DNA of 40,227 nucleotides from a virus, in UHGV virus genome UHGV-0148877; one strand, written 5' to 3'. A model generated the notes under the pieces. That model was not told where the DNA came from and did no database searches. It saw only the letters and a program-made list of their open reading frames with translations. Numbering within the stretch: the first letter of the stretch is position 1; every line of letters starts with the position of its first letter. Shown piece after piece: positions 4,587 to 36,024 of this stretch. Made by a program: the position numbers and the translations under genes.

Positions 4587-4603
4587 ATTACCTTTCGGGT
4601 AAT
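4587..4603. promoter_or_regulatory. Operator palindrome ATTACC-TTTCG-GGTAAT
   Basis: Perfect 6+6 inverted repeat, about 75 nt upstream of the SOS-regulated small gene; an upstream hybrid copy ATTACC-TGAAA-AACCAC lies at 4538-4554. Confidence 0.55.
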
Positions 4604-4939: not shown

Positions 4940-4975
4940 TTAAAGGCCGCAAGAGCGGCCTATCGTTTCGCTTTG
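4940..4975. terminator. Bidirectional hairpin terminator between convergent genes
   Basis: AGGCCGC-AAGA-GCGGCCT hairpin flanked by A/T-rich runs on both sides, between the 4680-4937 (+) and 4960-5688 (-) genes. Confidence 0.5.
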
Positions 4976-5688
4976 TGCTCATCCCAGCACGTTTTGCACC
5001 ATGCCATTAAGCCGTCCGCATTTTGATTATTAGGGTAAAAGCTGGTTCGTTTTCTGCGGACATTACAAATTGGGCACCACTTCATATGGCGTGTATTCTT
5101 TGGGCCATCGAGACACCTTGCACACCACTTAGTCAATCCATCTGGATTTTTTGACGATTTCCTGAATTTTTCATATGGAAGGTTTATTCTGCATCGCAAG
5201 CACTGCTTGCTACCACTTGAAACTCTGTTAGCTGATTCTTCTTTTGGCGGCGATACAGAAGGTATTCTTGCTGGCTCTGATACTGCCTGAGGTGCTTTTT
5301 TAGATGACTGAGACGATATGTCATCACCAGGGAATCTTCCATGATATGCCGGACGCGTTGACACTCCAGGTGGAAGCTCAGCTGTAAACGGCTTTGGCTG
5401 AATCAGTTGCCTCTCTTTTGCTAACTCCTGCTGTTTATAATATGTCTGGATTACCGCACTATCATAAGCAGGAGGTGCGGAAATATTAGGCGCATTACCT
5501 CCAGTTTTTTGAAACTGAGTAGAGGTGTGTTCTATCACCTGTGTACGATTAATCGTTATCTCCCCATCTTCGGTCTTTATCGTTTTGTTATGATTAACGA
5601 CCGTACGATCAGAGATCTTAGTCTTGTTCTGGTTGATAACGTAAATAATCACCGCAACCACACCAACAACTATCCAGAAAACTTCCAT
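4960..5688 (-). CDS. Membrane-anchored protein with tandem Cys-rich (zinc-ribbon-like) C-terminal repeats
   Basis: 242 aa; N-terminal TM helix (VFWIVVGVVAVIIYVI), Pro/Ser-rich linker, then two repeats of C-x2-C ... DGL-x2-WC-x2-C (CLRC...DGLTKWCARC; CPIC...DGLMAWCKTC); AT-rich; no family recognised. Confidence 0.55.
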   Translation of the reverse strand: MEVFWIVVGVVAVIIYVINQNKTKISDRTVVNHNKTIKTEDGEITINRTQVIEHTSTQFQKTGGNAPNISAPPAYDSAVIQTYYKQQELAKERQLIQPKPFTAELPPGVSTRPAYHGRFPGDDISSQSSKKAPQAVSEPARIPSVSPPKEESANRVSSGSKQCLRCRINLPYEKFRKSSKNPDGLTKWCARCLDGPKNTRHMKWCPICNVRRKRTSFYPNNQNADGLMAWCKTCWDEHKAKR

Positions 5689-5817: not shown

Positions 5818-6082
5818 TTTACATCGCACTCCTCTTGTGCCATAGTAATCGGGCACTGGCAAAATCCAGTGCCGGGATTGGCGTCCCGAGTTACTACAGA
5901 GGCACATATGCCGCATAAGCGGTTTTTTTATGTGTAAAGCGCACCTATTCTATGGTGGGCTGTGTGGGGGCACCGAAAGGTGCGCCGGGTCCTTTGTAGC
6001 CGGTTACGCCAACCCTGCACAGTTCACCACCAACCGATTGGCGTCGGTAGTGGTGATTAACCTAACTACAAAGGTGATCGCT

Positions 6083-6769
6083 ATGACTGCTAACGTAACC
6101 CCATCTGTTTTTCATTTTGAATCAGAAGCAACCATTCGAGCCATTGTTATTGATGGAAATCCTTGGTTTGTTGCCAAAGACGTTATTAAAGCTCTTCAAC
6201 TGACAAACCCCACTATGTCAATAAAATCTCTTGATGATGATGAAAGGGCTAAATTTAACTTAGGCCGTCAAGGCGAAACCAATATTATCAACGAGTCAGG
6301 CCTCTACACACTGATCCTCCGCTGCCGCGACGCAGTGACACCAGGCACTATCCCCTACCGCTTTCGTAAATGGGTTACAGGTGAGGTTCTTCCTCAGATC
6401 CGCCGCACCGGAAGTTACATTAAAAACTCGCTCCCGCAGGAAGAACGCATAAAGATGGTTGCCGACCAGGTAGCCAACGCCACGGCGTCAGCAGTAATGC
6501 AGGCGATGAAGATAGAGAACAAAACCTACAGTGCCCCACTGAAGCCCGGCTACCGCAGCCTGATTCATTCGCCGTCTGGTGTTCTCGGCCTGACGGAGAA
6601 CTCACTGCTGATGAATCTGCTGAACCAGTTACAGGACGACGGGCACGACGTATCGGGCGCGGCGGCGGAGCTGACCACCATGTTCTGCTACATCGTCGGT
6701 GTGAGCAAATGCCTGCGTGATATCCAGACGCACGCGGAGTACATCAACGACAAGGCAGGGTTCTTCTGA
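6083..6769 (+). CDS. Antirepressor with Bro-N domain
   Basis: 228 aa from the ATG at 6083 (AAGGTGA RBS); N-terminus IRAIVIDGNPWFVAKDVIKAL matches the Bro-N pattern; C-terminal domain paralogous to the 4680-4937 product. Confidence 0.8.
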   Translation: MTANVTPSVFHFESEATIRAIVIDGNPWFVAKDVIKALQLTNPTMSIKSLDDDERAKFNLGRQGETNIINESGLYTLILRCRDAVTPGTIPYRFRKWVTGEVLPQIRRTGSYIKNSLPQEERIKMVADQVANATASAVMQAMKIENKTYSAPLKPGYRSLIHSPSGVLGLTENSLLMNLLNQLQDDGHDVSGAAAELTTMFCYIVGVSKCLRDIQTHAEYINDKAGFF

Positions 6770-24812: not shown

Positions 24813-24889
24813 GTGGCATTAGCTCAGTTGGACAGAGCAACCGCCTTCTAAGCGGTTGGTCGCAGGTTCGAATCCTGCATGCCACGCCA
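24813..24889 (+). tRNA. tRNA-Arg (anticodon UCU)
   Basis: 77 nt folded by hand: 7-bp acceptor stem GTGGCAT/ATGCCAC, D stem GCTC/GAGC, anticodon stem ACCGC/GCGGT with loop CTTCTAA (anticodon TCT), T stem GCAGG/CCTGC with loop TTCGAAT, discriminator G, encoded CCA. Confidence 0.9.
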
Positions 24890-25076: not shown

Positions 25077-25205
25077 AAGGTGTGAATCATGAAATACGAA
25101 TTCGATGGATTTTGATGTCGTGACATGTCACAAACAGCCAGCCGATGAGCTGGCTTTGTTTTATCCTCACCAGAGGATATCAGCAGCATTATCCCCTCCA
25201 GAGGA

Positions 25206-26681
25206 TTAAGCATAGGGATCGTAATCTGTAATGGCCTTGCCTTGCTGGTTCTGCTGACCGGGAATTCGCAGACGCTTCGACACCGGGAAAGCAAACGTCA
25301 GCAGTAGCGCATCGCCTTTACCCGGCGAACGCCCAAGCCGCTCCTTGATATCTTCCTTCGGTTCGATAACGATTTTACCGTCCACGCGAACTTTGTACTC
25401 TGCCGCCGACAGGTCGTCCGCTGTTTCCTGGTCATCCAGCATGCCGCCCAGCCTCAGCCATGTCTTGCATGCATTGAACATCTCCCCACGCTTGTTAAGC
25501 ATCTGCGGGTCAGTGGACGCACCGCCGAACGGAACAAGTTGCCATGTACGTCCCCAGCCATCACCGATTGACTTCAAACCGGTTCCGTAACCGAAGTCGA
25601 TGAACACCGCGTCAGCCTGGTACTGGTCTTCAAAGTCAGCGATACGCTTCGCCATAATCAGATCGTCGGTGGTCTTGTTGCCAGTCCACAACACCTTACT
25701 GTGCAGCCCCTGCCGCAGGTATATCACAGCGTCATCAACGCCGGAGTATGCAGGGTCAACGCCGATTATCACCGGAGCATGTGCCACCTGCGCAGCAGTT
25801 ACCACCCGTTTCATTGCCTCGTCAGTAAGACCGGTAGGGATAAACTGCAATTCAGATGCATCAGGGAATATGCCGCGCACACGGATTTTAACGAAGTCGC
25901 TGTCTTCCCCGTAGTCATCAACCCATTTCTGCAACTGCTGTTTGTTGGTGCCTTCCACCGTCCGGCTGTCAATCTGCGCAGTTTTCCAGCGGTGTTTATA
26001 TTTGCGGAAACATTCGCGGAAACGCCCGGTATTACGCGTCGGGTTCCCGAACGCCACCCAGATGATTTCGGTGTCTTCGTCCGTCAGCGCACCCTCTGCT
26101 ACCTCCCACACCAGATCGGCAATGTTGGATGCTTCGTCGAAAACCACGATGATGCGTTTGCGCTCGTTGTGTAGTCCGGCGAATGCCTCAGTGTTGTGCT
26201 CAGACCAGGGGATTGCGTCAGCTCGCCACCGCTTGTCGTGCCCAGGATCATTGCTGTACATCGCGGTAGCGGTACAGGTAAACCAGTCTTTCGTGATGGC
26301 AAGGTTCGACCACTTGATAATTTCCGGCCAGGTCTTCGTTCGTAGCTGGTTGTCGGTGTTGGCGGTCACCACGACCTTACAATCCTCGCAAGTGGACATG
26401 CCCCAGTTGATCAGCATTGAGATGAATGCGGATTTACCAATACCGTGACCAGAAGCGCGTGCCAGCATAAGCGGCTGATATCGCGTCTCTGGATTCTGCA
26501 GGTGATCACGTATCTCTCGGAACGCATCGGCCTGCCACTGACGTGGACCGGTGGCATGTGCCAGTTCAGTACCCTCTTCCCCCCACGGGAACGCATAGAG
26601 GGCATAGCCAAGCGGATCGTGAGTGAACCCTGCAATATCCTCGATCAACTGCTCTTCAGGAGATAACGCTGTATCTGTCAC
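25206..26681 (-). CDS. Terminase large subunit
   Basis: 491 aa; N-terminal ATPase region with a Walker A-like GHGIGKS and C-terminal nuclease-like region; start (GTG with AGGATGG RBS) overlaps the TerS stop. Confidence 0.85.
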   Translation of the reverse strand: MTDTALSPEEQLIEDIAGFTHDPLGYALYAFPWGEEGTELAHATGPRQWQADAFREIRDHLQNPETRYQPLMLARASGHGIGKSAFISMLINWGMSTCEDCKVVVTANTDNQLRTKTWPEIIKWSNLAITKDWFTCTATAMYSNDPGHDKRWRADAIPWSEHNTEAFAGLHNERKRIIVVFDEASNIADLVWEVAEGALTDEDTEIIWVAFGNPTRNTGRFRECFRKYKHRWKTAQIDSRTVEGTNKQQLQKWVDDYGEDSDFVKIRVRGIFPDASELQFIPTGLTDEAMKRVVTAAQVAHAPVIIGVDPAYSGVDDAVIYLRQGLHSKVLWTGNKTTDDLIMAKRIADFEDQYQADAVFIDFGYGTGLKSIGDGWGRTWQLVPFGGASTDPQMLNKRGEMFNACKTWLRLGGMLDDQETADDLSAAEYKVRVDGKIVIEPKEDIKERLGRSPGKGDALLLTFAFPVSKRLRIPGQQNQQGKAITDYDPYA

Positions 26682-27274
26682 TGATTACCATCCTGACGTT
26701 CTTTGAGTCGCTTCCTGGCTGCTGCTATGCGATCAGCAATTGTCACATTCACATTAACATCCAGACGTTCTTTGAACGCGTTGACATCAACATGCTTACC
26801 AATCAGTTCTAGGTTCTTCACCTTGTCAGGCCATTTAATTTTTTTGAGGATTGTCTCTATCGAATCCTCGTTCATGTTCATGATGGTCGATGACAGATCA
26901 AAGCCACTAAGCGTAGTGCGCCAGATTTTCGGCCACTCACGGATTGGTTTAAGGCTCCCATCGTCGTTGAGGATGTCGATCACGTCCATCTGGTCGATCT
27001 CCACCAGGCGCATGAGAACGTAATCAGCACTGACGCGCATTCGTTTGTTGCGCTCCTCCATCAACTCGGCAATCCGTTTCTGAATGCGTTCATCGCGCAT
27101 CATGACACTGGCTTTAACTGCCGCTGTATTTGGGGAGAATCCTGCGTTAATCGCTGCCTGAGTCTGGTTTTCAGGCGTTTTGATGTATGACTGGCAATAA
27201 GCCTCCTGCATTGCAGTTAGTGGCTTAAATTGCGTTGATTTGCGTTTATAGGTTTTAGGTTCAGCAGGCATCAT
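26678..27274 (-). CDS. Terminase small subunit
   Basis: About 198 aa from the internal ATG pair at 27274/27271 (MMPAEPKTYKRK...); immediately upstream of TerL and overlapping its start; the track's longer N-terminus would run through operator-like repeats. Confidence 0.6.
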   Translation of the reverse strand: MMPAEPKTYKRKSTQFKPLTAMQEAYCQSYIKTPENQTQAAINAGFSPNTAAVKASVMMRDERIQKRIAELMEERNKRMRVSADYVLMRLVEIDQMDVIDILNDDGSLKPIREWPKIWRTTLSGFDLSSTIMNMNEDSIETILKKIKWPDKVKNLELIGKHVDVNAFKERLDVNVNVTIADRIAAARKRLKERQDGNQ

Positions 27275-27290
27275 AACCACCGTGGTAATA

Positions 27291-27307
27291 GTTACCGTTG
27301 TGGTAAT
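27291..27307. promoter_or_regulatory. Operator palindrome GTTACC-GTTGT-GGTAAT before the late (terminase) genes
   Basis: Perfect TTACC-N5-GGTAA core; part of a 14-bp direct repeat (GGTA(C/A)CTATTACCAC x2 on the minus strand) between an early-operon terminator and the TerS start. Confidence 0.5.
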
Positions 27308-27316
27308 AGTACCATG

Positions 27317-27346
27317 CAAAATAAAGCCGCCATAGTTGGCGGCAGT
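27317..27346 (-). terminator. Intrinsic terminator between the early/nin-like block and the terminase genes
   Basis: On the minus strand GCCGCC-AACTAT-GGCGGC hairpin followed by TTTATTTTG. Confidence 0.5.
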
Positions 27347-27392
27347 ATTCAAAACCCATCAAATTCATCATGCATAATCTACTCGTGACATT

Positions 27393-27734
27393 TCACACTA
27401 TTAATTTCGTTTCATGCCAGCCTTTAGTCACCCAGCATTGCGAGTCACCATTACAAGGGCATGAATTAACTGGAACTCTCTCGCCGCACTTACCGCAACG
27501 TTTTCTGCTGATCGATTTTATACGCCCGCGCACGCGTGCATCATCCTGGCGGATCAGTAACGCTATATACTCACCAAATTCGTAAGGCGCACGCCCGGGG
27601 CGACGCGTGGCACAGTTACGCTCCAGCATTTCAATTTCCTGAGCATCAAGCACAATTTCCAGCTTACGCACACCAGATGCAGCTTGTCTTGCTCTCTGAG
27701 CGGCTTTGCGCTCTGCTGCTGATTTAGCCATCAA
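27393..27734 (-). CDS. Small regulator-like protein with Cys-rich zinc-finger-like C-terminus
   Basis: 113 aa; basic N-terminal region then CGKCGERVPVNSCPCNGDSQC; last gene before the terminator that precedes TerS. Confidence 0.45.
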   Translation of the reverse strand: MMAKSAAERKAAQRARQAASGVRKLEIVLDAQEIEMLERNCATRRPGRAPYEFGEYIALLIRQDDARVRGRIKSISRKRCGKCGERVPVNSCPCNGDSQCWVTKGWHETKLIV

Positions 27735-28005
27735 TATTTACCTTTATCGCGTACACCTTTACCGGCTTATCGCCGAAGTGCGGATGTGTGATTGTTTTCA
27801 CTTCATATCCGTTATACGGGACATCAATTCTGCGACTGAAGTCGTCGCGCTTCGGATATCCCTTTGTGATAATCAGGCGGTCATACTTACGGTTAACGAG
27901 GCGCTTTTTCCAGTAGTCATTACACAGGCGATACTCTTCCGTTTTCTCTCCGCGAATCATGGCATCGAAGTATTCACCTTTAACGGCAAGTTGCAGGTTA
28001 GCCAC
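27724..28005 (-). CDS. DUF3850-like (ASCH-fold) protein
   Basis: About 93 aa from the GTG at 28005 (AGGTGG RBS), which removes the track's 137-nt overlap with the upstream gene; LAVKGEYFDAMIRGEKTEEYR matches the recalled DUF3850 N-terminal pattern. Confidence 0.45.
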   Translation of the reverse strand: MANLQLAVKGEYFDAMIRGEKTEEYRLCNDYWKKRLVNRKYDRLIITKGYPKRDDFSRRIDVPYNGYEVKTITHPHFGDKPVKVYAIKVNIDG

Positions 28006-28801
28006 GGTTAACCACCTGCTTCGGTGCTGCTGGCATTTCACGCCAGTGCGTAACTGAGTGCGGATCCGGATATTCGGTGCCATCATCCCAGCGATTACCA
28101 TTCCACATTGCAGACCACATCTCACCGTCTTCATACATGACCATTACCGGAATTAACTTATCCGGCATTCGCTCACTACAGCTTATCCAAGCATCCGGAG
28201 TTACCGGAGAATTGCCACCCTGAACAGTAGGCATATCCGGACCTTTGCGAATCGCCCTGGCAAGATCGATTGGGTCGTCGTACAACCAGTCACCTGTTTG
28301 CGGATGATTGGCTTCTGCCAATTGTGCAGCCCACTCCAGGCCGTCTTTGTGTCCTTGCAGATAGTCCAGCGGTAACTCATCACTATTACTTACAGGTTCG
28401 GCCTGAAGCATGGCGGCGCGATAGGCGTTCCAGCCGACAGCTTTTCCGTGTTCAAACGCGCTGTCAAAGTCATCATCCATTTCCATCGCAGCGGGCACAG
28501 ATACCGGCGCTGGAGGGACGGTGTAGAGCGGCATTACCTCAATATTGAAGATATCCCCCTCGCTTGGACACGCCTCTGCGCTACCGTAAACCCAAGGGTG
28601 AACGACTCCGTTACGCTTGTTGATTAATCTGTGCGCCCACGCCACAGGCTCCGCTTCGAGCGATGCCAGCGCGATACGCGCATTATTAATCAGGAGGCTA
28701 TCAGCAGGAGATAAAACAACATGAGCGTTTCCCTCCGCATCAATTTCAGAATTCGTAATTTTTCTGAACAGCTTTGCCAGTTCTTTGGTAATAGTGCTCA
28801 T
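27998..28801 (-). CDS. DUF551-domain protein
   Basis: 267 aa; C-terminal WISCSERMP...WDDGTEYP...VTHWREMP resembles the DUF551 signature recalled from lambdoid accessory regions. Confidence 0.55.
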   Translation of the reverse strand: MSTITKELAKLFRKITNSEIDAEGNAHVVLSPADSLLINNARIALASLEAEPVAWAHRLINKRNGVVHPWVYGSAEACPSEGDIFNIEVMPLYTVPPAPVSVPAAMEMDDDFDSAFEHGKAVGWNAYRAAMLQAEPVSNSDELPLDYLQGHKDGLEWAAQLAEANHPQTGDWLYDDPIDLARAIRKGPDMPTVQGGNSPVTPDAWISCSERMPDKLIPVMVMYEDGEMWSAMWNGNRWDDGTEYPDPHSVTHWREMPAAPKQVVNRG

Positions 28802-28804
28802 GGG

Positions 28805-29239
28805 TTAGTCCTCACCTTTCTGTTGCACTACCGGAACCGATAAATCGACGCACCAGGAGATAACGCCGAATTGATCATCGTTCTGCGCTTCACCCCAAAC
28901 GTAATATTTTGATCCTGGCCGACCCATTGCCGGGTCAAATACTTCTATGCCGCGTTCTGCCGTTAACGACATCAGAATCTGATGCAGGCCGCCTTTGATG
29001 TTCAGTGACGGAACGGTCAGGAAGTAAATAAACCCGTAAAGCAATTCGGCCTTGCGCTGGCTTCCGTAAAAATACGGGATTTTGTAATAATCCAGCGCGT
29101 CGTCGAGCCAGTCTGTTTTGTCGTGGAATTTCTGATGCCAGCGTTCCACTACCTCATCGACAGGTTGACCGGCAACCATTGCAACGCAGGTAGCCATGCA
29201 GGTGTTAAATGTTGGCTGCATTTGATGTTGAAGCATCAC
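28805..29239 (-). CDS. Hypothetical protein
   Basis: 144 aa ORF packed tightly in the nin-like block; N-terminal Cys cluster (NTCMATCVAM); no family recognised. Confidence 0.45.
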   Translation of the reverse strand: MMLQHQMQPTFNTCMATCVAMVAGQPVDEVVERWHQKFHDKTDWLDDALDYYKIPYFYGSQRKAELLYGFIYFLTVPSLNIKGGLHQILMSLTAERGIEVFDPAMGRPGSKYYVWGEAQNDDQFGVISWCVDLSVPVVQQKGED

Positions 29240-29931
29240 TCCCCCTTACCGATGCCGGCGGCGCGGTCTATGCGTTCGATTTCAGCCAGAATTAAAGCCC
29301 CTGCTTTTACCAGGTTGCGACGGCGGGCATTTGGCTTCCACCATGAAGCATCCCAAGGCCACCCCCACGGCTTGCCACCATTGCGGTTAACAGTTTCTGT
29401 TTCGTTTATGTAACAAACCGCCGCCATTGCCAGTTCCCCGTTGCAGTGTTCGTCATCATGCTCTGGCATCCACCCATCAACCGATTGTTGCCGCTGGCGC
29501 TCTGCTATCACATCCAGAATTGCAGGATTGAATGCACGCGCTTCCAGTTCAGCGATTCGCTTCTCTGCGGCTTCCAGCTCAACACGCAGCTTCCCTACAG
29601 TTAGCGCAATTTCCTCGTTCTCCTGATCGCGGCGTTTTATGTATTGCTGGTTTCTTTCCCGTTCATCCAGCAGCGCCAGCACGGTAGCTGGATTGGCTGC
29701 GGCGATGAATTCAGCATTGGCCTGCTGTTCCATTTGGAAATCTTCATAGAAACGGCTTTCTGGATGCGCTCCTTCAATTCTGCAAATAGGAATATATCCA
29801 GCAACCTCGCGATGAATTAGTGCATCATCACCATCAAATCGTCCCTCTCCATATTCGAGCGACCACACACCACACGTTGCTTTCTCTGCCTTTTCACGCA
29901 GTGCCTGATAGTCAATTGTCATTCTCGCCAT
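29236..29931 (-). CDS. Ead/Ea22-like protein
   Basis: 231 aa; central coiled-coil (KLRVELEAAEKRIAELEA) and C-terminal Trp-rich WGWPWDASWWKP, recalled as typical of Ead/Ea22-like proteins. Confidence 0.55.
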   Translation of the reverse strand: MARMTIDYQALREKAEKATCGVWSLEYGEGRFDGDDALIHREVAGYIPICRIEGAHPESRFYEDFQMEQQANAEFIAAANPATVLALLDERERNQQYIKRRDQENEEIALTVGKLRVELEAAEKRIAELEARAFNPAILDVIAERQRQQSVDGWMPEHDDEHCNGELAMAAVCYINETETVNRNGGKPWGWPWDASWWKPNARRRNLVKAGALILAEIERIDRAAGIGKGE

Positions 29932-30596
29932 CCTTCACAGTTGTAATCACTACAGCCTTCAAAATCATATGGGCTGTACTGCCAGGTTATTTTTCCGCAA
30001 TGCGGACAATTCCAACGCACCTTCCCGCTTCGCGACTTCTTTCTTCTGTTCTGCTCTTTCAACCAGTCAGGCATGACCAAACCTGCGCCCTGAACCATTG
30101 TTCTGCGATTAAAGTTATTGATATTGAACGTCCGGCGCTTTGCTGAATCAGCAATGGAAAATGGCAACCAAACTATTCCTGGTTCGTTTTTGTTGGCGAC
30201 GCTAAAGATGGTCGCTTTACTGAAGTCATCTGTTGGCAATCCACCGTGTTGAAGCCAGTAAACATCGTTGCCGTTCCAGCTACCTTTTTTGTAGGCCACA
30301 TACGCAGTGCAATCTGGCTCAATCAGGTTTTCTGTAGGGATGTACTGGCAATCAACGTGCCACACAGCCATTGCATCCACGATATCAGCGCAAACAGGCT
30401 GATCGATATCTCGACCACAATTCCAGGCTTTTTGGGCTTCTTCCAGCGTGTAAACATGAGCGCGATCGATATTAGAACTGTAACCATTGCCGTTATGGCA
30501 ATGGAATGAAGCGTTATTACCCACAGTTTCACGCAAGCACATCATGTAAAAGCGGTTATTCACTGGCTGCTTCCTTTGCGAATCTGTTCCGCCCAT
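29919..30596 (-). CDS. Hypothetical Cys-rich protein
   Basis: 225 aa (start uncertain; an internal ATG pair at 30545/30542 is an alternative); C-terminal WNCPHCGKITW...CSDYNCEGW zinc-ribbon-like motifs. Confidence 0.45.
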   Translation of the reverse strand: MGGTDSQRKQPVNNRFYMMCLRETVGNNASFHCHNGNGYSSNIDRAHVYTLEEAQKAWNCGRDIDQPVCADIVDAMAVWHVDCQYIPTENLIEPDCTAYVAYKKGSWNGNDVYWLQHGGLPTDDFSKATIFSVANKNEPGIVWLPFSIADSAKRRTFNINNFNRRTMVQGAGLVMPDWLKEQNRRKKSRSGKVRWNCPHCGKITWQYSPYDFEGCSDYNCEGWRE

Positions 30597-31141
30597 TCTT
30601 CAAGGGATTTCTCCGCATATTCACCAGACAGGCCATCAATCGGATGCGCTTCATTAGCCAACTCTTCTTTCGCTGACAAAATCATGCGTGTAACGTCGAA
30701 AACTTCACGCAAAGACTTATTGATAAATCCGTGATTGAACGCAGCAGCAAGACGGCTGGCGGTATAGTTAATCCCCTCGTTGCGTGCTTCCGCACGAATT
30801 TCAGACAGGAAAGCATCGGTGGCTGGGGTGTCTGATTGCATAGACTTTGCGCGATAATCATTCCACCCTCTTGCATATATGGGATTAACTTGCACCCCAT
30901 CTTTTACGCAATATGCCTGACCTCCACGGTTGATAACCTTGATTTCGTCCATAGCGCCAGACTTCAGCCCCGCATTCTCCGCCGCCAGCGCATTAGCACG
31001 CACCAGTTGCACTTCCAGTTGCGTTGCCAAATCGCTGATCAGCTTTGCCACACTACGCATATCAACGGCACCACATTCAGCTTTCAGTTCCGAAGCCATC
31101 TCATGCCCGGCGGCAACTAACCCTTTGATATTACTTTCCAT
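30560..31141 (-). CDS. Hypothetical protein
   Basis: 193 aa ORF in the nin-like block; no motif recognised. Confidence 0.45.
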   Translation of the reverse strand: MESNIKGLVAAGHEMASELKAECGAVDMRSVAKLISDLATQLEVQLVRANALAAENAGLKSGAMDEIKVINRGGQAYCVKDGVQVNPIYARGWNDYRAKSMQSDTPATDAFLSEIRAEARNEGINYTASRLAAAFNHGFINKSLREVFDVTRMILSAKEELANEAHPIDGLSGEYAEKSLEEWAEQIRKGSSQ

Positions 31142-31202
31142 CTTTACCCTCGCTTATCCACATAACTTATTGATTACATTGATAACTAAAAAGATCGTCG
31201 AT

Positions 31203-31547
31203 TCAGAACTTTTCGATGTTCCAGCCACCACCTGCTTTCTTTGGTTTAACCGTTACCCCGATGATTCGGAACGGATACTGATCTGCGGCGACTTTGGTTT
31301 TCACTCTGGCGTCGTCGGTCCAGAAACCTTTCACTTCGTGCAGTTCCATCTCGCCGGAGGCGAGCATCACAGCGAAATCGGGCGTATAAAACGTGTTATC
31401 AGCTAACCGCAGCTTGATACCCTCGAACCGATACCAGGCGATTTCCCCTGCACGTTTACGCTGCTCAAGGTGCTGGCAATACGCAGATTCTGTTTTGTTC
31501 ATCTGGCCTGTTTTGAGTCGACCAAGAGCCTGTATCTGTTTTCTCAT
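31203..31547 (-). CDS. Hypothetical protein (possibly DUF1064-like)
   Basis: 114 aa; first gene downstream of P; two operator palindromes lie at and just upstream of its start. Confidence 0.45.
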   Translation of the reverse strand: MRKQIQALGRLKTGQMNKTESAYCQHLEQRKRAGEIAWYRFEGIKLRLADNTFYTPDFAVMLASGEMELHEVKGFWTDDARVKTKVAADQYPFRIIGVTVKPKKAGGGWNIEKF

Positions 31548-31549
31548 GA

Positions 31550-31566
31550 TTTACCCCTGAGGTAAT
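31550..31566. promoter_or_regulatory. Operator palindrome TTTACC-CCTGA-GGTAAT
   Basis: Perfect TTACC-N5-GGTAA core abutting the start codon of the 31203-31547 gene. Confidence 0.5.
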
Positions 31567-31611
31567 TAAAAACCACATAAGACACGAAATCAATAGATTT
31601 TAGAATATTTT

Positions 31612-31628
31612 ATTACCCAGCAGGTAAT
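31612..31628. promoter_or_regulatory. Operator palindrome ATTACC-CAGCA-GGTAAT
   Basis: Perfect 6+6 inverted repeat with 5-bp spacer in the P to nin intergenic region. Confidence 0.55.
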
Positions 31629-31664
31629 CATCGAGACGTAAAAAAATGCGCTATCGCGCTGGTA

Positions 31665-32465
31665 TTACTTGATAAATCCTGCCGCCTTTCCCCGCCTGTA
31701 TTCCTCCATCAGCCACTGCGCCGGTGTTATTCCCCCAAGGGTGGCGGCGTTAGGCATGCACCCGAAACTTCGCCCTGGTGGATGGTAAACGTCTCTCCCT
31801 GTGTCCGGAGGTGTACTCATGGGTTCTGGCTTTGCCTGTATGCTGATCACCGGATCGGGTATCTGCTGTCCGGAAGCCACCTTTTTCGCCCAATCATCGA
31901 GCAGCCTGCGCGCGTGTTTCTCAACCTCAATCTCGCTAAGCTGGCGCTGATACATTGCACGGCGGGTATCACATACGACCCAGTACATAACCGGATGCCG
32001 CCACGGGAATCTTTCGGGACCACCAGGATATAAACTTTTTTCCTTGCTGTACCGGTGAAACTCCGCCATCACATCGTCAATGGTGACGCCAAGAACCATC
32101 TTGCTGTCTTTACACCACTTGATAAATTGCCCTGGCGACGGCCAGAACGGAGATTCACTGGCGCGGGCGTGGCGCATACCAGCAGAAACCTGTTCACGGG
32201 TTCGGATCCCCCCTTCGGCAAACGCAGCAATCCACTGCTGTTTTGCAGCAACTTCCTGCTCTGGCGTCTTCAGGTTGGTTACCACTGCCGCCGGAAACAG
32301 TTGTTTCAGCTGTTTGAAAAGGGCATCAACAAGCCTCTCTGCTGACATGTTCACTACGTTGTCATTGTTGGTGTACTGATGCTCATAACCTGACATGCGA
32401 GAAAGGGCTTCTCCGTCACGGTTTTGTATTGCGGTAAAAACGTTGTTCACAAGAAATCCTCCCAC
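31665..32465 (-). CDS. Replication protein P-like (DnaB helicase loader)
   Basis: 266 aa; block LFPAAVVTNLKTPEQEVAAKQQWIAAFAEGGIRTREQVSAGMRHARASESPFWPSPGQFIKWC closely parallels my recollection of lambda P. Confidence 0.75.
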   Translation of the reverse strand: MGGFLVNNVFTAIQNRDGEALSRMSGYEHQYTNNDNVVNMSAERLVDALFKQLKQLFPAAVVTNLKTPEQEVAAKQQWIAAFAEGGIRTREQVSAGMRHARASESPFWPSPGQFIKWCKDSKMVLGVTIDDVMAEFHRYSKEKSLYPGGPERFPWRHPVMYWVVCDTRRAMYQRQLSEIEVEKHARRLLDDWAKKVASGQQIPDPVISIQAKPEPMSTPPDTGRDVYHPPGRSFGCMPNAATLGGITPAQWLMEEYRRGKAAGFIK

Positions 32466-33628: not shown

Positions 33629-33859
33629 TCATGAGTAGAAGAAGTATGCCAGTTCTGCTTTTGAGCGCAGCCATTGTCTTGATTTACAGGCTTTAAAAAG
33701 CCCATCCATCAATACCTTACCTGGCATTTTGCGCTTACCTGTTAAGTGAGTCTGGATATAGTGACTCGTCGTTCCGGCTTCCTGTGCGAAGGCTTCACGC
33801 TCATCCGGAGTAAGTGCAAGCCAGTGCTTTTTGAAATCGAAATGTCCGTTATCGCTCAT
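33629..33859 (-). CDS. Cro-like early regulator (HTH)
   Basis: 76 aa; divergent from the repressor gene across a region with three operator palindromes; HTH-like segment EREAFAQEAGTTSHYIQTHLTG. Confidence 0.6.
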   Translation of the reverse strand: MSDNGHFDFKKHWLALTPDEREAFAQEAGTTSHYIQTHLTGKRKMPGKVLMDGLFKACKSRQWLRSKAELAYFFYS

Positions 33860-34013: not shown

Positions 34014-34598
34014 ATGAAAAGTATCCAGGACGTCCGCAGGCAAAATCTCAACGACTTGATCGACCGTGAATTCAATGGTGTTCAGACGCGGATGGCTGAA
34101 AAACTTGGAACTCAGGCAAATCTGGTAAACCGCTGGGCTCTTGGCAAGAAGGTTATCGGCGACCAGGTTGCGCGAAAAATTGAAGCTGCCGCCAATAAAC
34201 CCCGTAACTGGCTTGATATCGATCGCTCGCTTTCTCAGGAAGGTTTTCAGCCTGTCGGCCCGAGTGATATAGGTCAGCTGGCTGCTCACAACCTGGAACG
34301 CTGGATGAGCGAAAGCCGCGACCTTTCAACGCAGGGAAAACTACACCGCGCATCCGGCGTCGCCCAGGTGACAATCAGCCGCCTGTTAAACAATGAGGTC
34401 AGCGTTTCCATTTCCACCCTGGAGAATGTTGCATCCGCATTCGGGCGTCATGGCTATGAATTACTGATTCACCCGCACGACCCTGCGACTATCAACTATG
34501 ACCGCTCGCGCTACGCATTGTTACCCGAAACCGAGAAAGCAAAGATCGAAAGTTACATTGAATTTGTCATCAACCAGAACGAAAAAAACAAACAATAA
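34014..34598 (+). CDS. Prophage repressor (CI-like, HTH; no S24 peptidase domain evident)
   Basis: 194 aa; N-terminal HTH (GVQTRMAEKLGTQANLVNRWALGKK) and a second HTH-like segment (ASGVAQVTISRLLNNE); divergent from cro-like gene; flanked by operator clusters; followed by a terminator. Confidence 0.7.
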   Translation: MKSIQDVRRQNLNDLIDREFNGVQTRMAEKLGTQANLVNRWALGKKVIGDQVARKIEAAANKPRNWLDIDRSLSQEGFQPVGPSDIGQLAAHNLERWMSESRDLSTQGKLHRASGVAQVTISRLLNNEVSVSISTLENVASAFGRHGYELLIHPHDPATINYDRSRYALLPETEKAKIESYIEFVINQNEKNKQ

Positions 34599-35206: not shown

Positions 35207-36024
35207 AACCGGGAATTTATTTCGACATCAGCAACGAAGACTACCACGCCGGTGACGGCGTGAGTAAGTCGCAACTGGACATGGTTGCCAAGAATCCGGC
35301 GCTTCTTAAATGGGTTCAGGCAGCACCAGAAGACGAAGAGAAAAAGTCTGCACTGGATATGGGAACCGCATTGCACTGTCTGCTTCTGGAGCCTGGAGAG
35401 TTCGACAAACGCTTCATTGTTTCACCGAAATTCGATCGTCGGACGAAACAAGGTAAAGCTGACGAAGAGGAATTTCTTCGTGATGTGGCGGATATGGGGA
35501 TTACGGTACTTGATGCCGAGCAGTGGCGGAAACTGGAGCTGATGCGTGATAGCGCAATGGCTCACCCGGCGGCACGCTGGATGCTGGAAGCACCTGGTTA
35601 CTGCGAAGCATCAATGTACTGGAACGATGAAGAGACGGGGGAGTTGTGCCGAATTCGTCCAGACAAATGGCTGAACGAGCACAACGTGATCGTCGACGTG
35701 AAAAAGGTTGCAGATATGGACCGTTTTGCACGCCACATCGAGGAATTCCGCTACCACGTGCAGGACGCAATGTACCGCGAAGGCGCAATGAGGGTTACTG
35801 GTCAGCCGCATGGTTTTTTCTTTCTTGCCGTGAGCGAAAGCATTGATTGTGGTCGGTATCCGGTACGCGTGTTCGAGCTGGATGCGCAGGATGTCGATGC
35901 CGGGCACGCTCTGTTCCGCCGGGATCTGAATACCTATCACGAATGCCGCATCAATGATGAATGGGGCGGTGTGGAAATCATTAAACGCCCTGAGTGGGCA
36001 CGCAAACAGGATATGTACATATGA
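35203..36024 (+). CDS. PD-(D/E)XK-family exonuclease (RecE-like recombination partner)
   Basis: 273 aa; motif IRPDKW...VIVDVKKV consistent with a PD-(D/E)XK nuclease; translationally coupled (ATGA) to the RecT gene. Confidence 0.65.
   Translation: MKPGIYFDISNEDYHAGDGVSKSQLDMVAKNPALLKWVQAAPEDEEKKSALDMGTALHCLLLEPGEFDKRFIVSPKFDRRTKQGKADEEEFLRDVADMGITVLDAEQWRKLELMRDSAMAHPAARWMLEAPGYCEASMYWNDEETGELCRIRPDKWLNEHNVIVDVKKVADMDRFARHIEEFRYHVQDAMYREGAMRVTGQPHGFFFLAVSESIDCGRYPVRVFELDAQDVDAGHALFRRDLNTYHECRINDEWGGVEIIKRPEWARKQDMYI

Follow-up and report, generated by a model that had tools for sequence, protein, structure and literature searches.

The window analyzed here is the whole 40,227-nucleotide stretch of the UHGV virus genome UHGV-0148877, which megablast places in the genus Uetakevirus, the phiV10/epsilon15-like temperate podoviruses. 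Between positions 27,393 and 31,547 it carries a block of eight small genes on the minus strand that is probably the distal early-right accessory operon of a Uetakevirus prophage, gated by the phage repressor and provided with its own promoter. The block lies between a lambda-P-like replication gene and the small terminase gene. It begins with a predicted junction nuclease and ends with a homologue of phiV10 gp55 and epsilon15 gp49, and both of its ends are flanked by terminators and by operators of the TTACC-N5-GGTAA type.

Position and gene content of the block

Megablast and annotation link the window to phages phiV10, PAS61, phiv142-3, ZX5, TL-2011b and epsilon15, and several Escherichia coli relatives cover 70-83% of the 20-40 kb region at about 97% identity. 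The counterpart of the block is gp45-gp55 in phiV10 and gp43-gp49 in epsilon15. Synteny and gene identities were established directly. A listing of the open reading frames (ORFs) between 25 and 34 kb reproduced all eight minus-strand ORFs at the same coordinates as in the initial annotation, and each of them matched a PHROG family (E between 1e-42 and 1e-118); they are therefore real genes and none is a chance ORF. The earlier description of eight tightly packed minus-strand ORFs between replication and terminase genes was thus borne out by the listing and by the PHROG matches. A DnaT-like initiator and the lambda-P-like helicase loader (31665-32465; Pfam Phage_lambda_P, 1.5e-56) are located upstream, and the small (Terminase_2, 1.4e-29) and large terminase subunits downstream. 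In order of transcription, the genes are:

Gene 1, 31203..31547, minus strand: DUF1064 PD-(D/E)XK nuclease, 114 amino acids, motif PD57 ... E70-V-K72
Gene 2, 30560..31141, minus strand: Eae-like protein, 193 amino acids, phrog_614, without Pfam family
Gene 3, 29919..30563, minus strand: phrog_2457 protein, 214 amino acids from GTG 30563
Gene 4, 29236..29931, minus strand: Ead/Ea22-like N-terminal and coiled-coil module (amino acids 5-128), 231 amino acids
Gene 5, 28805..29239, minus strand: predicted stand-alone C39-like papain-fold cysteine peptidase, phrog_4049, 143-144 amino acids
Gene 6, 27998..28801, minus strand: N-terminal phrog_660/5117 module and C-terminal DUF551, 267 amino acids
Gene 7, 27724..28005, minus strand: ASCH-like protein, 93 amino acids from GTG 28005, phrog_625
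Gene 8, 27393..27731, minus strand: phiV10 gp55/epsilon15 gp49 homologue, 112 amino acids, phrog_536 'transcriptional regulator' (8.3e-55)

Genes overlap by 1-13 nt or are separated by 3 nt, except for a 61-nt gap after gene 1, a spacing typical of translational coupling in one operon. Start codons were corrected by comparison with homologues. The 29919-30596 ORF starts at GTG 30563, in a GTGA overlap with the upstream stop, while the 27724-28134 and 27393-27734 ORFs start at GTG 28005 and ATG 27731, respectively; the start of the 28805-29239 ORF is probably ATG 29236.

Operators, candidate promoter and terminators

The operator family is directly established. Two palindromes directly upstream of the block (31613-31627 and 31551-31565), already noticed in the initial annotation, belong to a set of 13 sites found in the window with the pattern TTACC-N5-GGTAA, one mismatch being allowed, versus 0.52 expected by chance. 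These sites, 15 bp each, are located at 4588, 5709, 5802, 6842, 24476, 27274, 27292, 31551, 31613, 33896, 33944, 34656 and 34718. None of the 13 lies inside an assigned gene, the 27274/27292 pair falling only within an over-long ORF that begins at TTG 27352. This small terminase ORF call (26678-27352, minus strand) starts 78 nt too far upstream and crosses the two operators, while translation truly begins at ATG 27274 (MMPAEP...), the start that three relatives carry in their annotation. The operators are mostly paired and found before the block, before the small terminase gene, in the repressor/cro intergenic region and after the repressor gene, with further ones around a Bro-N antirepressor-like gene and before other structural or lysis units. 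Many of the sites across the genome precede transcription units. In the same way, 14 sites were found in phiV10 and 15 in epsilon15, many at corresponding positions including upstream of the block, upstream of the small terminase gene and in the repressor-cro region. In the epsilon15 RefSeq record, seven of these sites, including those at the block head and at the small terminase gene, are labelled 'protein_bind: repressor'. The elements that flank the block are:

31640..31660, minus strand: putative rho-independent terminator following the P-like gene, with GCGC-GATA-GCGC, a run of seven T and a weak 4-bp stem
31613..31627: operator O1, TTACCTGCTGGGTAA on the minus strand
31565..31593, minus strand: predicted sigma-70 promoter of the block, -35 TTGATT (31593-31588), 17-bp spacer, -10 TTTAAT (31570-31565)
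31551..31565: operator O2, TTACCTCAGGGGTAA on the minus strand
27318..27343, minus strand: rho-independent terminator ending the block, GCCGCC-AACTAT-GGCGGC and a T-rich run, called by the terminator scan
27274..27306: two adjacent operators (27292-27306 and 27274-27288) before the small-terminase ATG 27274

On the coding strand, the leader (31548-31664) thus reads from the stop codon of the P-like gene through a short GC hairpin with seven T to TTACCTGCTGGGTAA, followed by AAAATATT ... CTA-TTGATT, 17 nt, TTTAAT, TACCTCAGGGGTAA and ATC-ATG. The 31640-31660 terminator was left uncalled by the terminator scan, having fewer than 5 pairs; its homologous site is annotated in phiV10 and it is kept through epsilon15. 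When the leaders of eight phages are aligned, the arms of the operators prove invariant, the 5-bp spacer of O1 differs in almost every genome, and the -35 and -10 elements are kept even in epsilon15 despite diverged flanks. The O1 homologue of epsilon15 (35906-35922) is annotated 'protein_bind: repressor'. O2 abuts the -10 element, spans both the Shine-Dalgarno sequence and the expected start of transcription, and is 62 bp from O1 centre to centre, a spacing found again in the 34656/34718 operator pair. Moreover, this layout recurs in the region that follows the repressor gene, with a terminator, an operator, ATCTATTGACA, 17 nt and AATTAT abutting the TACC of a second operator, and the ATCTATTGA motif is common to the block promoter and this leftward early promoter region (TTGACA-17-AATTAT). 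At the other end of the block, the 27318-27343 terminator is kept through epsilon15 and annotated in both phiV10 and epsilon15. A candidate extended -10 element, TGgTACTAT (27314-27306), abuts the TACC of a small-terminase operator, and the epsilon15 record gives the counterpart of the operator site there (12-27) as repressor-binding.

The repressor (34014-34598) has 100% identity to phiV10 gp40 and 42% to epsilon15 gp38, whose structural match, according to the epsilon15 record, is the repressor of Salmonella phage SPC32H. The SPC32H repressor binds palindromic sites as a tetramer (PMC9638917), which fits the paired operator sites. In Uetakevirus ZX5, repressor overexpression abolishes lytic transcription (PMC9782041). 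Since terminators and operators stand on both flanks, the block may be read as a separate repressor-gated lytic operon. Transcription from the replication genes would meet the 31640-31660 terminator, and the block would then be transcribed from its own sigma-70 promoter as one translationally coupled mRNA for the eight genes, ending at 27343-27318. In a lysogen, the phage repressor would probably occupy both operators, most likely as a tetramer bridging the two sites, and the eight genes would be silent in the prophage and expressed only in lytic growth. The distribution of the sites suggests that one repressor may gate most of the phage promoters, beyond the two early ones on either side of the repressor gene.

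A 12-bp perfect palindrome, GTGACATGTCAC, recurs near operon 3' ends across the genus, with copies at 25120-25131 and 27385-27396 in the window, at 2262 and 19493 in phiV10 and at 2142, 19517 and 39612 in epsilon15. The copies whose surroundings were inspected adjoin rho-independent terminators, and the one after the last block gene overlaps its stop codon, with one mismatch in the window.

Conserved ends and mosaic middle

The mosaicism of the block is a direct observation. At least 80% of the 4.2-kb block was found in one place in 0 of 50,697 phage records and in 0 of 5,426 complete E. coli genomes. The comparison across related phages proposed in the initial annotation was carried out by tblastn of the block genes against eight relatives (seven E. 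coli phages and epsilon15), and gene content proved to vary. The DUF1064 gene is present in seven of the eight, with 96-98% identity among the E. coli phages (97% to phiV10), and epsilon15 has a RuvC resolvase in its place. The gp55-like last gene is found in all eight, at 96-98% identity in the seven E. coli phages (98% to phiV10) and 78% in epsilon15. The Eae-like gene is also present in all of them in a divergent form (33-78% identity), the ASCH-like gene in four, the phrog_2457 gene in one and the phrog_4049 peptidase gene in none, while the Ea22 and DUF551 proteins have only modules in common with their counterparts. The six genes between the ends include exchangeable single-gene or single-module cassettes that are common to lambdoid nin and exo-xis regions, namely the Eae-like, Ead/Ea22-like, DUF551 and ASCH-like genes.

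The region itself is of a known and annotated kind, the early-right distal operon of Uetakevirus with its repressor sites. Like the block, phiV10 and epsilon15 have the terminator-operator-promoter-operator leader, the trailing terminator, and Eae-like, Ea22-like and DUF551 genes in the middle. They differ in that the combination of middle genes seen here is in no searched record, and this particular combination is a modest novelty.

The conserved first and last genes

Gene 1 is probably an endonuclease of branched DNA or Holliday junctions. It passes the Pfam DUF1064 model (2.8e-7, 31.4 bits against a cut-off of 24.7), a domain missed in the initial annotation, which had counted only three ORFs with recognizable domain patterns. 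It also belongs to phrog_190, 'Holliday junction resolvase' (2e-42). To our knowledge, no DUF1064 member has been biochemically characterized. In a PDB sequence search, gene 1 gave a weak and non-significant match to T7 endonuclease I (E 0.17), located exactly over the catalytic segment, YTPDF ... E-V-K-G-F-W in gene 1 versus YTPDF ... E-T-K-G-L-W in the T7 enzyme; the common motif YTPDF ... E-x-K-G-x-W aligns in the two proteins. DUF1064 has been assigned to the PD-(D/E)XK superfamily (PMC1189080). The presence of a RuvC resolvase in the same slot of epsilon15 argues for a junction-resolving role, and gene 1 would most likely resolve branched replication or recombination intermediates ahead of packaging.

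Gene 8 is a core gene of the genus and was found in 637 of the 5,426 complete E. coli genomes (about 12%). Its family comprises about 150 clusters at 50% identity, and the 726 closer homologues are nearly all 112 amino acids long. The family alignment displays a basic N-terminal arm, a short strand and two helices, then C-x2-C ... C ... C. The zinc-ribbon-like cysteine cluster that had been noted in the 27393-27734 ORF holds for the first two cysteines, which are invariant, and for the third, nearly so, but the fourth is variable. Gene 8 likely combines a YbfE-like ribbon-helix-helix N-terminus with a TraR/DksA-like zinc finger. For the first part, 15 of 45 family members match the NCBIfam model PRK11675 (LexA-regulated, YbfE; best 5.6e-5), the window protein itself reaching E 0.052 and 14 bits against a cut-off of 62, and a few members have weak matches to Pfam RHH_5, RHH_1 or RepB. 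YbfE is a CopG/ribbon-helix-helix protein. For the second part, the family profile matches TraR and YbiI chains weakly (E 0.07-0.1) and a few members match TraR/DksA zinc-finger models, the second cysteine pair not being CxxC in the family. This composite prediction for the conserved last gene is modestly new. As a DNA-binding protein, gene 8 would probably tune transcription at the early-to-late transition. In phages N15 and ZF40 and in Vibrio phages, its homologue is located at or beside the end of a run of co-oriented genes.

The genes in the middle

No Pfam or NCBIfam family was found for four of the ORFs (27393-27731, 28805-29239, 29919-30563 and 30560-31141). More broadly, the NCBIfam scan of all eight block proteins yielded no useful match to the proteins of the window itself, PDB sequence searches with the eight gave nothing significant, and an Rfam scan of 26.5-34.5 kb gave no RNA family. 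Direct and inverted repeats within the block were short two-copy chance matches.

Two of the three domain patterns recognized initially hold, namely DUF551 in gene 6 (PF04448, amino acids 204-261, 4.9e-17, 63 bits against a threshold of 22) and Ead_Ea22 in gene 4 (PF13935, 5.8e-32, 111.6 bits against 27). The third, a DUF3850-like pattern in gene 7, amounts to an ASCH-like call: no DUF3850 match was obtained, and there is a sub-threshold Pfam ASCH match (E 0.055, 14.6 bits against a cut-off of 21.2) and relatives at 89-90% identity that are named ASCH in RefSeq. phrog_625 matches amino acids 44-135 of the long gene 7 ORF. The strand and frame of gene 7 are backed by the substitution pattern in three homologues, where changes are mostly third-position. 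The antisense ORF 27706-28011 (plus strand), although matching phrog_20945 (7e-50), was rejected as a gene; its substitutions are nearly all non-synonymous and one homologue has a stop, and phrog_20945 itself was probably built from mis-called genes.

Genes 2, 4 and 6 consist of modules that PHROG matches reveal to be fused in other combinations elsewhere, for instance in phrog_250, phrog_368, phrog_14548 and phrog_60, each of which spans parts of two among the three genes. The C-terminus of gene 4 is a fused phrog_19550 module. These matches agree with the published mosaicism of Ea22 proteins, in which a common N-terminus and coiled coil are followed by variable C-terminal domains including DUF551 (PMC10834534). 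The same Ead_Ea22 N-terminus, coiled coil and swappable C-terminal domains including DUF551 are found in Ea22, Ead and Eae of the lambda/P22 exo-xis (ea) region, but the block genes are located in the rightward operon after the replication genes and not between exo and xis. The solved C-terminal domain of lambda Ea22 differs from the phrog_19550 module of gene 4, for which there is no PDB sequence match.

Gene 3 encodes two tandem beta-hairpin domains of about 80 amino acids, a basic linker and a C-terminal C4 zinc ribbon. The cysteine cluster proposed for the 29919-30596 ORF was confirmed, CxxC-14-C-4-C being invariant or nearly so in the family alignment. The structure model is confident, with a predicted local distance difference test score (pLDDT) of 91.2, and the beta-hairpin domain is internally duplicated. 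The fold search with this model found no structural relative, and phrog_2457 may thus represent an orphan fold, a modest novelty. Its 219 relatives, when their source is named, come from Gammaproteobacteria, on chromosomes and plasmids, and homologues are located in prophage ea regions and plasmids. In E. coli, the gene was found in 280 of 5,426 genomes, with 181 of 290 matching places on plasmids that are possibly phage-plasmids.

Gene 5 is predicted to be an active papain-like peptidase, its papain-like fold being among the points that are shown rather than deduced. The initial annotation had pointed to an N-terminal cysteine cluster in the 28805-29239 ORF. The cluster is real, but a metal site was ruled out; it is the nucleophile motif of a papain-like fold, where Q8, C14, H86 and D102 are invariant in 21 family sequences and together with the fold fit a catalytic site. 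Placing phrog_4049 in the papain-like/C39 fold, with its set of catalytic residues intact, is modestly new. Like the C39 domains of bacteriocin ATP-binding cassette (ABC) transporters (PCAT1, ComA, LahT), gene 5 has an invariant Gln 6 residues before the invariant Cys and an invariant His 16 residues before the invariant Asp, a spacing that presumably corresponds to the catalytic residues of ComA. Unlike them, it is a stand-alone cytoplasmic protein of 143 amino acids carried by a phage, without a transporter and, in the contexts examined, without an adjacent Gly-Gly leader peptide gene, and it is unrecognized by the Pfam C39 models. Indeed, the window protein had no match to PF03412 or PF13529 at E <= 10, 1 of 21 relatives matched the Pfam C39 models (E 0.075), and the family profile had only a weak PDB match, to a PfhB2 chain (6u8t), which aligns the His-Asp segment. 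A literature search for phage-encoded C39 peptidases gave nothing relevant.

The family is rare, with only 32 detectable relatives in a set of 5.8 billion proteins (those with a named source all from Enterobacterales) and occurrence in 9 of 5,426 E. coli genomes. By tblastn, gene 5 matched 195 phage records, large lytic phages among them, and every match was below 60% identity. Its contexts are nin regions, in prophages of E. coli and Serratia, and an Enterobacter ea region beside a TraR-like gene. The gene stands alone, its neighbours differing in every context examined with none conserved. Lambdoid prophages of E. coli carry an identical copy, flanked by Ea22-like and DUF551 genes, in true nin regions (ren ... 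NinE, NinG, Q). In NZ_CP022154.1 (E. coli ABWA45), seven places match gene 5, some of which may be partial, versus a median of one per matching genome.

During infection, the gene 5 peptidase and the gene 3 zinc-ribbon protein would presumably act on host or phage targets. The initial annotation regarded the block as lying in a hotspot of anti-defence and host-modulation genes, an idea that fits the mosaic middle but not the two ends, which are conserved core genes rather than variable cargo. In its full form, this explanation holds that the variable genes inhibit immunity or modulate the host and that early expression lets them act ahead of defence systems. It draws on the highly mosaic middle, on cassettes exchanged one at a time among the early regions of unrelated phages and plasmids, on the rarity of the peptidase, and on the plausibility, as effectors, of a protease and of a zinc-ribbon protein whose fold is unknown. 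However, PADLOC defence-system models matched none of the eight block proteins, and no link or similarity to characterized anti-defence proteins came from PHROG, Pfam and NCBIfam scans, from PDB searches with the eight proteins or from fold searches with two, no dedicated anti-defence library having been searched. The characterized relatives, Ea22 proteins, are tied to the lysis-lysogeny decision and not to defence (PMC7093339, PMC10834534). An anti-defence or host-modulation role of the middle genes is thus speculation that nothing here supports or excludes, and a hotspot of this kind is an unlikely description of the block compared with a repressor-gated accessory operon.

Alternative modes of expression

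Several points weigh against a repressor-gated operon with its own promoter. Promoter and gating are read from sequence, and repressor occupancy, like the enzymatic and all other biochemical activities of the block genes, is inferred. With its 4-bp stem, the terminator after the P-like gene may allow read-through from the early-right promoter, in the cro-repressor region, to contribute. The -10 element is non-canonical (TTTAAT), and a consensus scan missed the promoter since position 2 of this element is T. The palindrome-binding protein is taken from annotation. The half-sites are identical in epsilon15 though the repressor is 42% identical versus 80% for the Cro-like protein (33629-33859), and therefore Cro or another protein may be their main reader. 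Finally, the ribbon-helix-helix and zinc-finger matches of gene 8 are all below curated thresholds, and its role as late-gene activator, which was downgraded, is doubtful since N15 has a homologue (gp46) yet a separate late activator (gp40).

Another view is that the block is a true nin-type region without a separate promoter, expressed by read-through or antitermination from the early-right promoter, with the palindromes acting only as roadblocks or translational operators. The weak terminator stem speaks for it, as do the overlap of O2 with the Shine-Dalgarno sequence, 3 nt from the start codon, and the similar overlap of operator and ribosome-binding site at the small terminase gene. Nevertheless, the genes examined between 26.6 and 34.6 kb include no evident N- or Q-type antiterminator, the -35 and -10 elements with their 17-bp spacer survive in epsilon15 where the flanks diverged, and the block promoter module has the layout of another promoter of the phage, a canonical TTGACA one; read-through as the sole mode of expression is judged improbable, about as much as the defence hotspot.

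The term 'nin-like' used in the initial annotation is nonetheless apt as a positional analogy. Like the nin region of lambda and P22, the block is downstream of replication and upstream of late genes, it is a dense and mosaic array of small genes with a junction-type nuclease (NinG or RusA there, DUF1064 here), and the module of Ea22, peptidase and DUF551 genes occurs in real nin regions. On the contrary, nin genes and Q are absent from it: none of the eight ORFs has a Pfam or PHROG match to NinB/Orf, NinE, NinG/Rap, NinH or Q. The block is also directly followed by the terminase genes and apparently possesses a repressor-controlled promoter instead of antiterminated read-through, so that the term is not supported in the sense of a read-through region.

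A bolder joint reading takes gene 5 as the founding phage stand-alone C39-like peptidase, a Gly-Gly-cleaving factor of counter-defence or host takeover, phrog_2457 as a new fold and gene 8 as a regulator contacting RNA polymerase. If so, gene 5 would cleave a host target, for example a ubiquitin-like conjugate or another immunity component, and would pass from one temperate-phage early operon to another as a cassette of one gene, with homologues in large lytic phages, while gene 8 would be a DNA-bound ribbon-helix-helix regulator contacting RNA polymerase via its TraR-like zinc finger. This combination has a slimmer chance than either of the two preceding explanations. Least probable by far is a lysogenic-conversion (moron) cluster expressed from the prophage to the benefit of the host, for which Ea22-type proteins favouring lysogeny in lambda and Stx phages (PMC7093339, PMC10834534) could speak, but all eight genes lie within the lytic early operon and share its orientation, the sole promoter candidate is bracketed by repressor operators, and moron-type internal promoter-terminator pairs are lacking, the 7.8 kb scanned holding three promoter-like sites, fewer than shuffled sequence.

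Significance and other features of the window

None of these results overturns current understanding; what they offer is annotation and candidates for accessory-gene screens. They fix the annotation of a region that about 12% of complete E. coli genomes carry in some form. In phages of the epsilon15/phiV10 type, the post-replication region is suggested to be a separately gated operon within a genome-wide set of repressor sites, which differs from the lambda model of antiterminated read-through. In addition, two tractable orphan genes emerge, a phage papain-like peptidase, transporter-less and predicted to be active, and a zinc-ribbon protein whose fold is modelled with confidence and has no known structural relative.

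Two further features of the window were observed outside the block. Within the prophage, a tRNA-Arg gene (anticodon TCT; 24813-24889, plus strand) separates the portal-side genes from the large terminase gene and is on the opposite strand; the related A0 34/86 prophage also carries a tRNA-Arg. Finally, an ORF of 242 amino acids (4960-5688, minus strand) with an N-terminal hydrophobic segment and several C-terminal CxxC pairs adjoins the 5709/5802 operator pair and is divergent from the Bro-N antirepressor-like gene (5930-6769).

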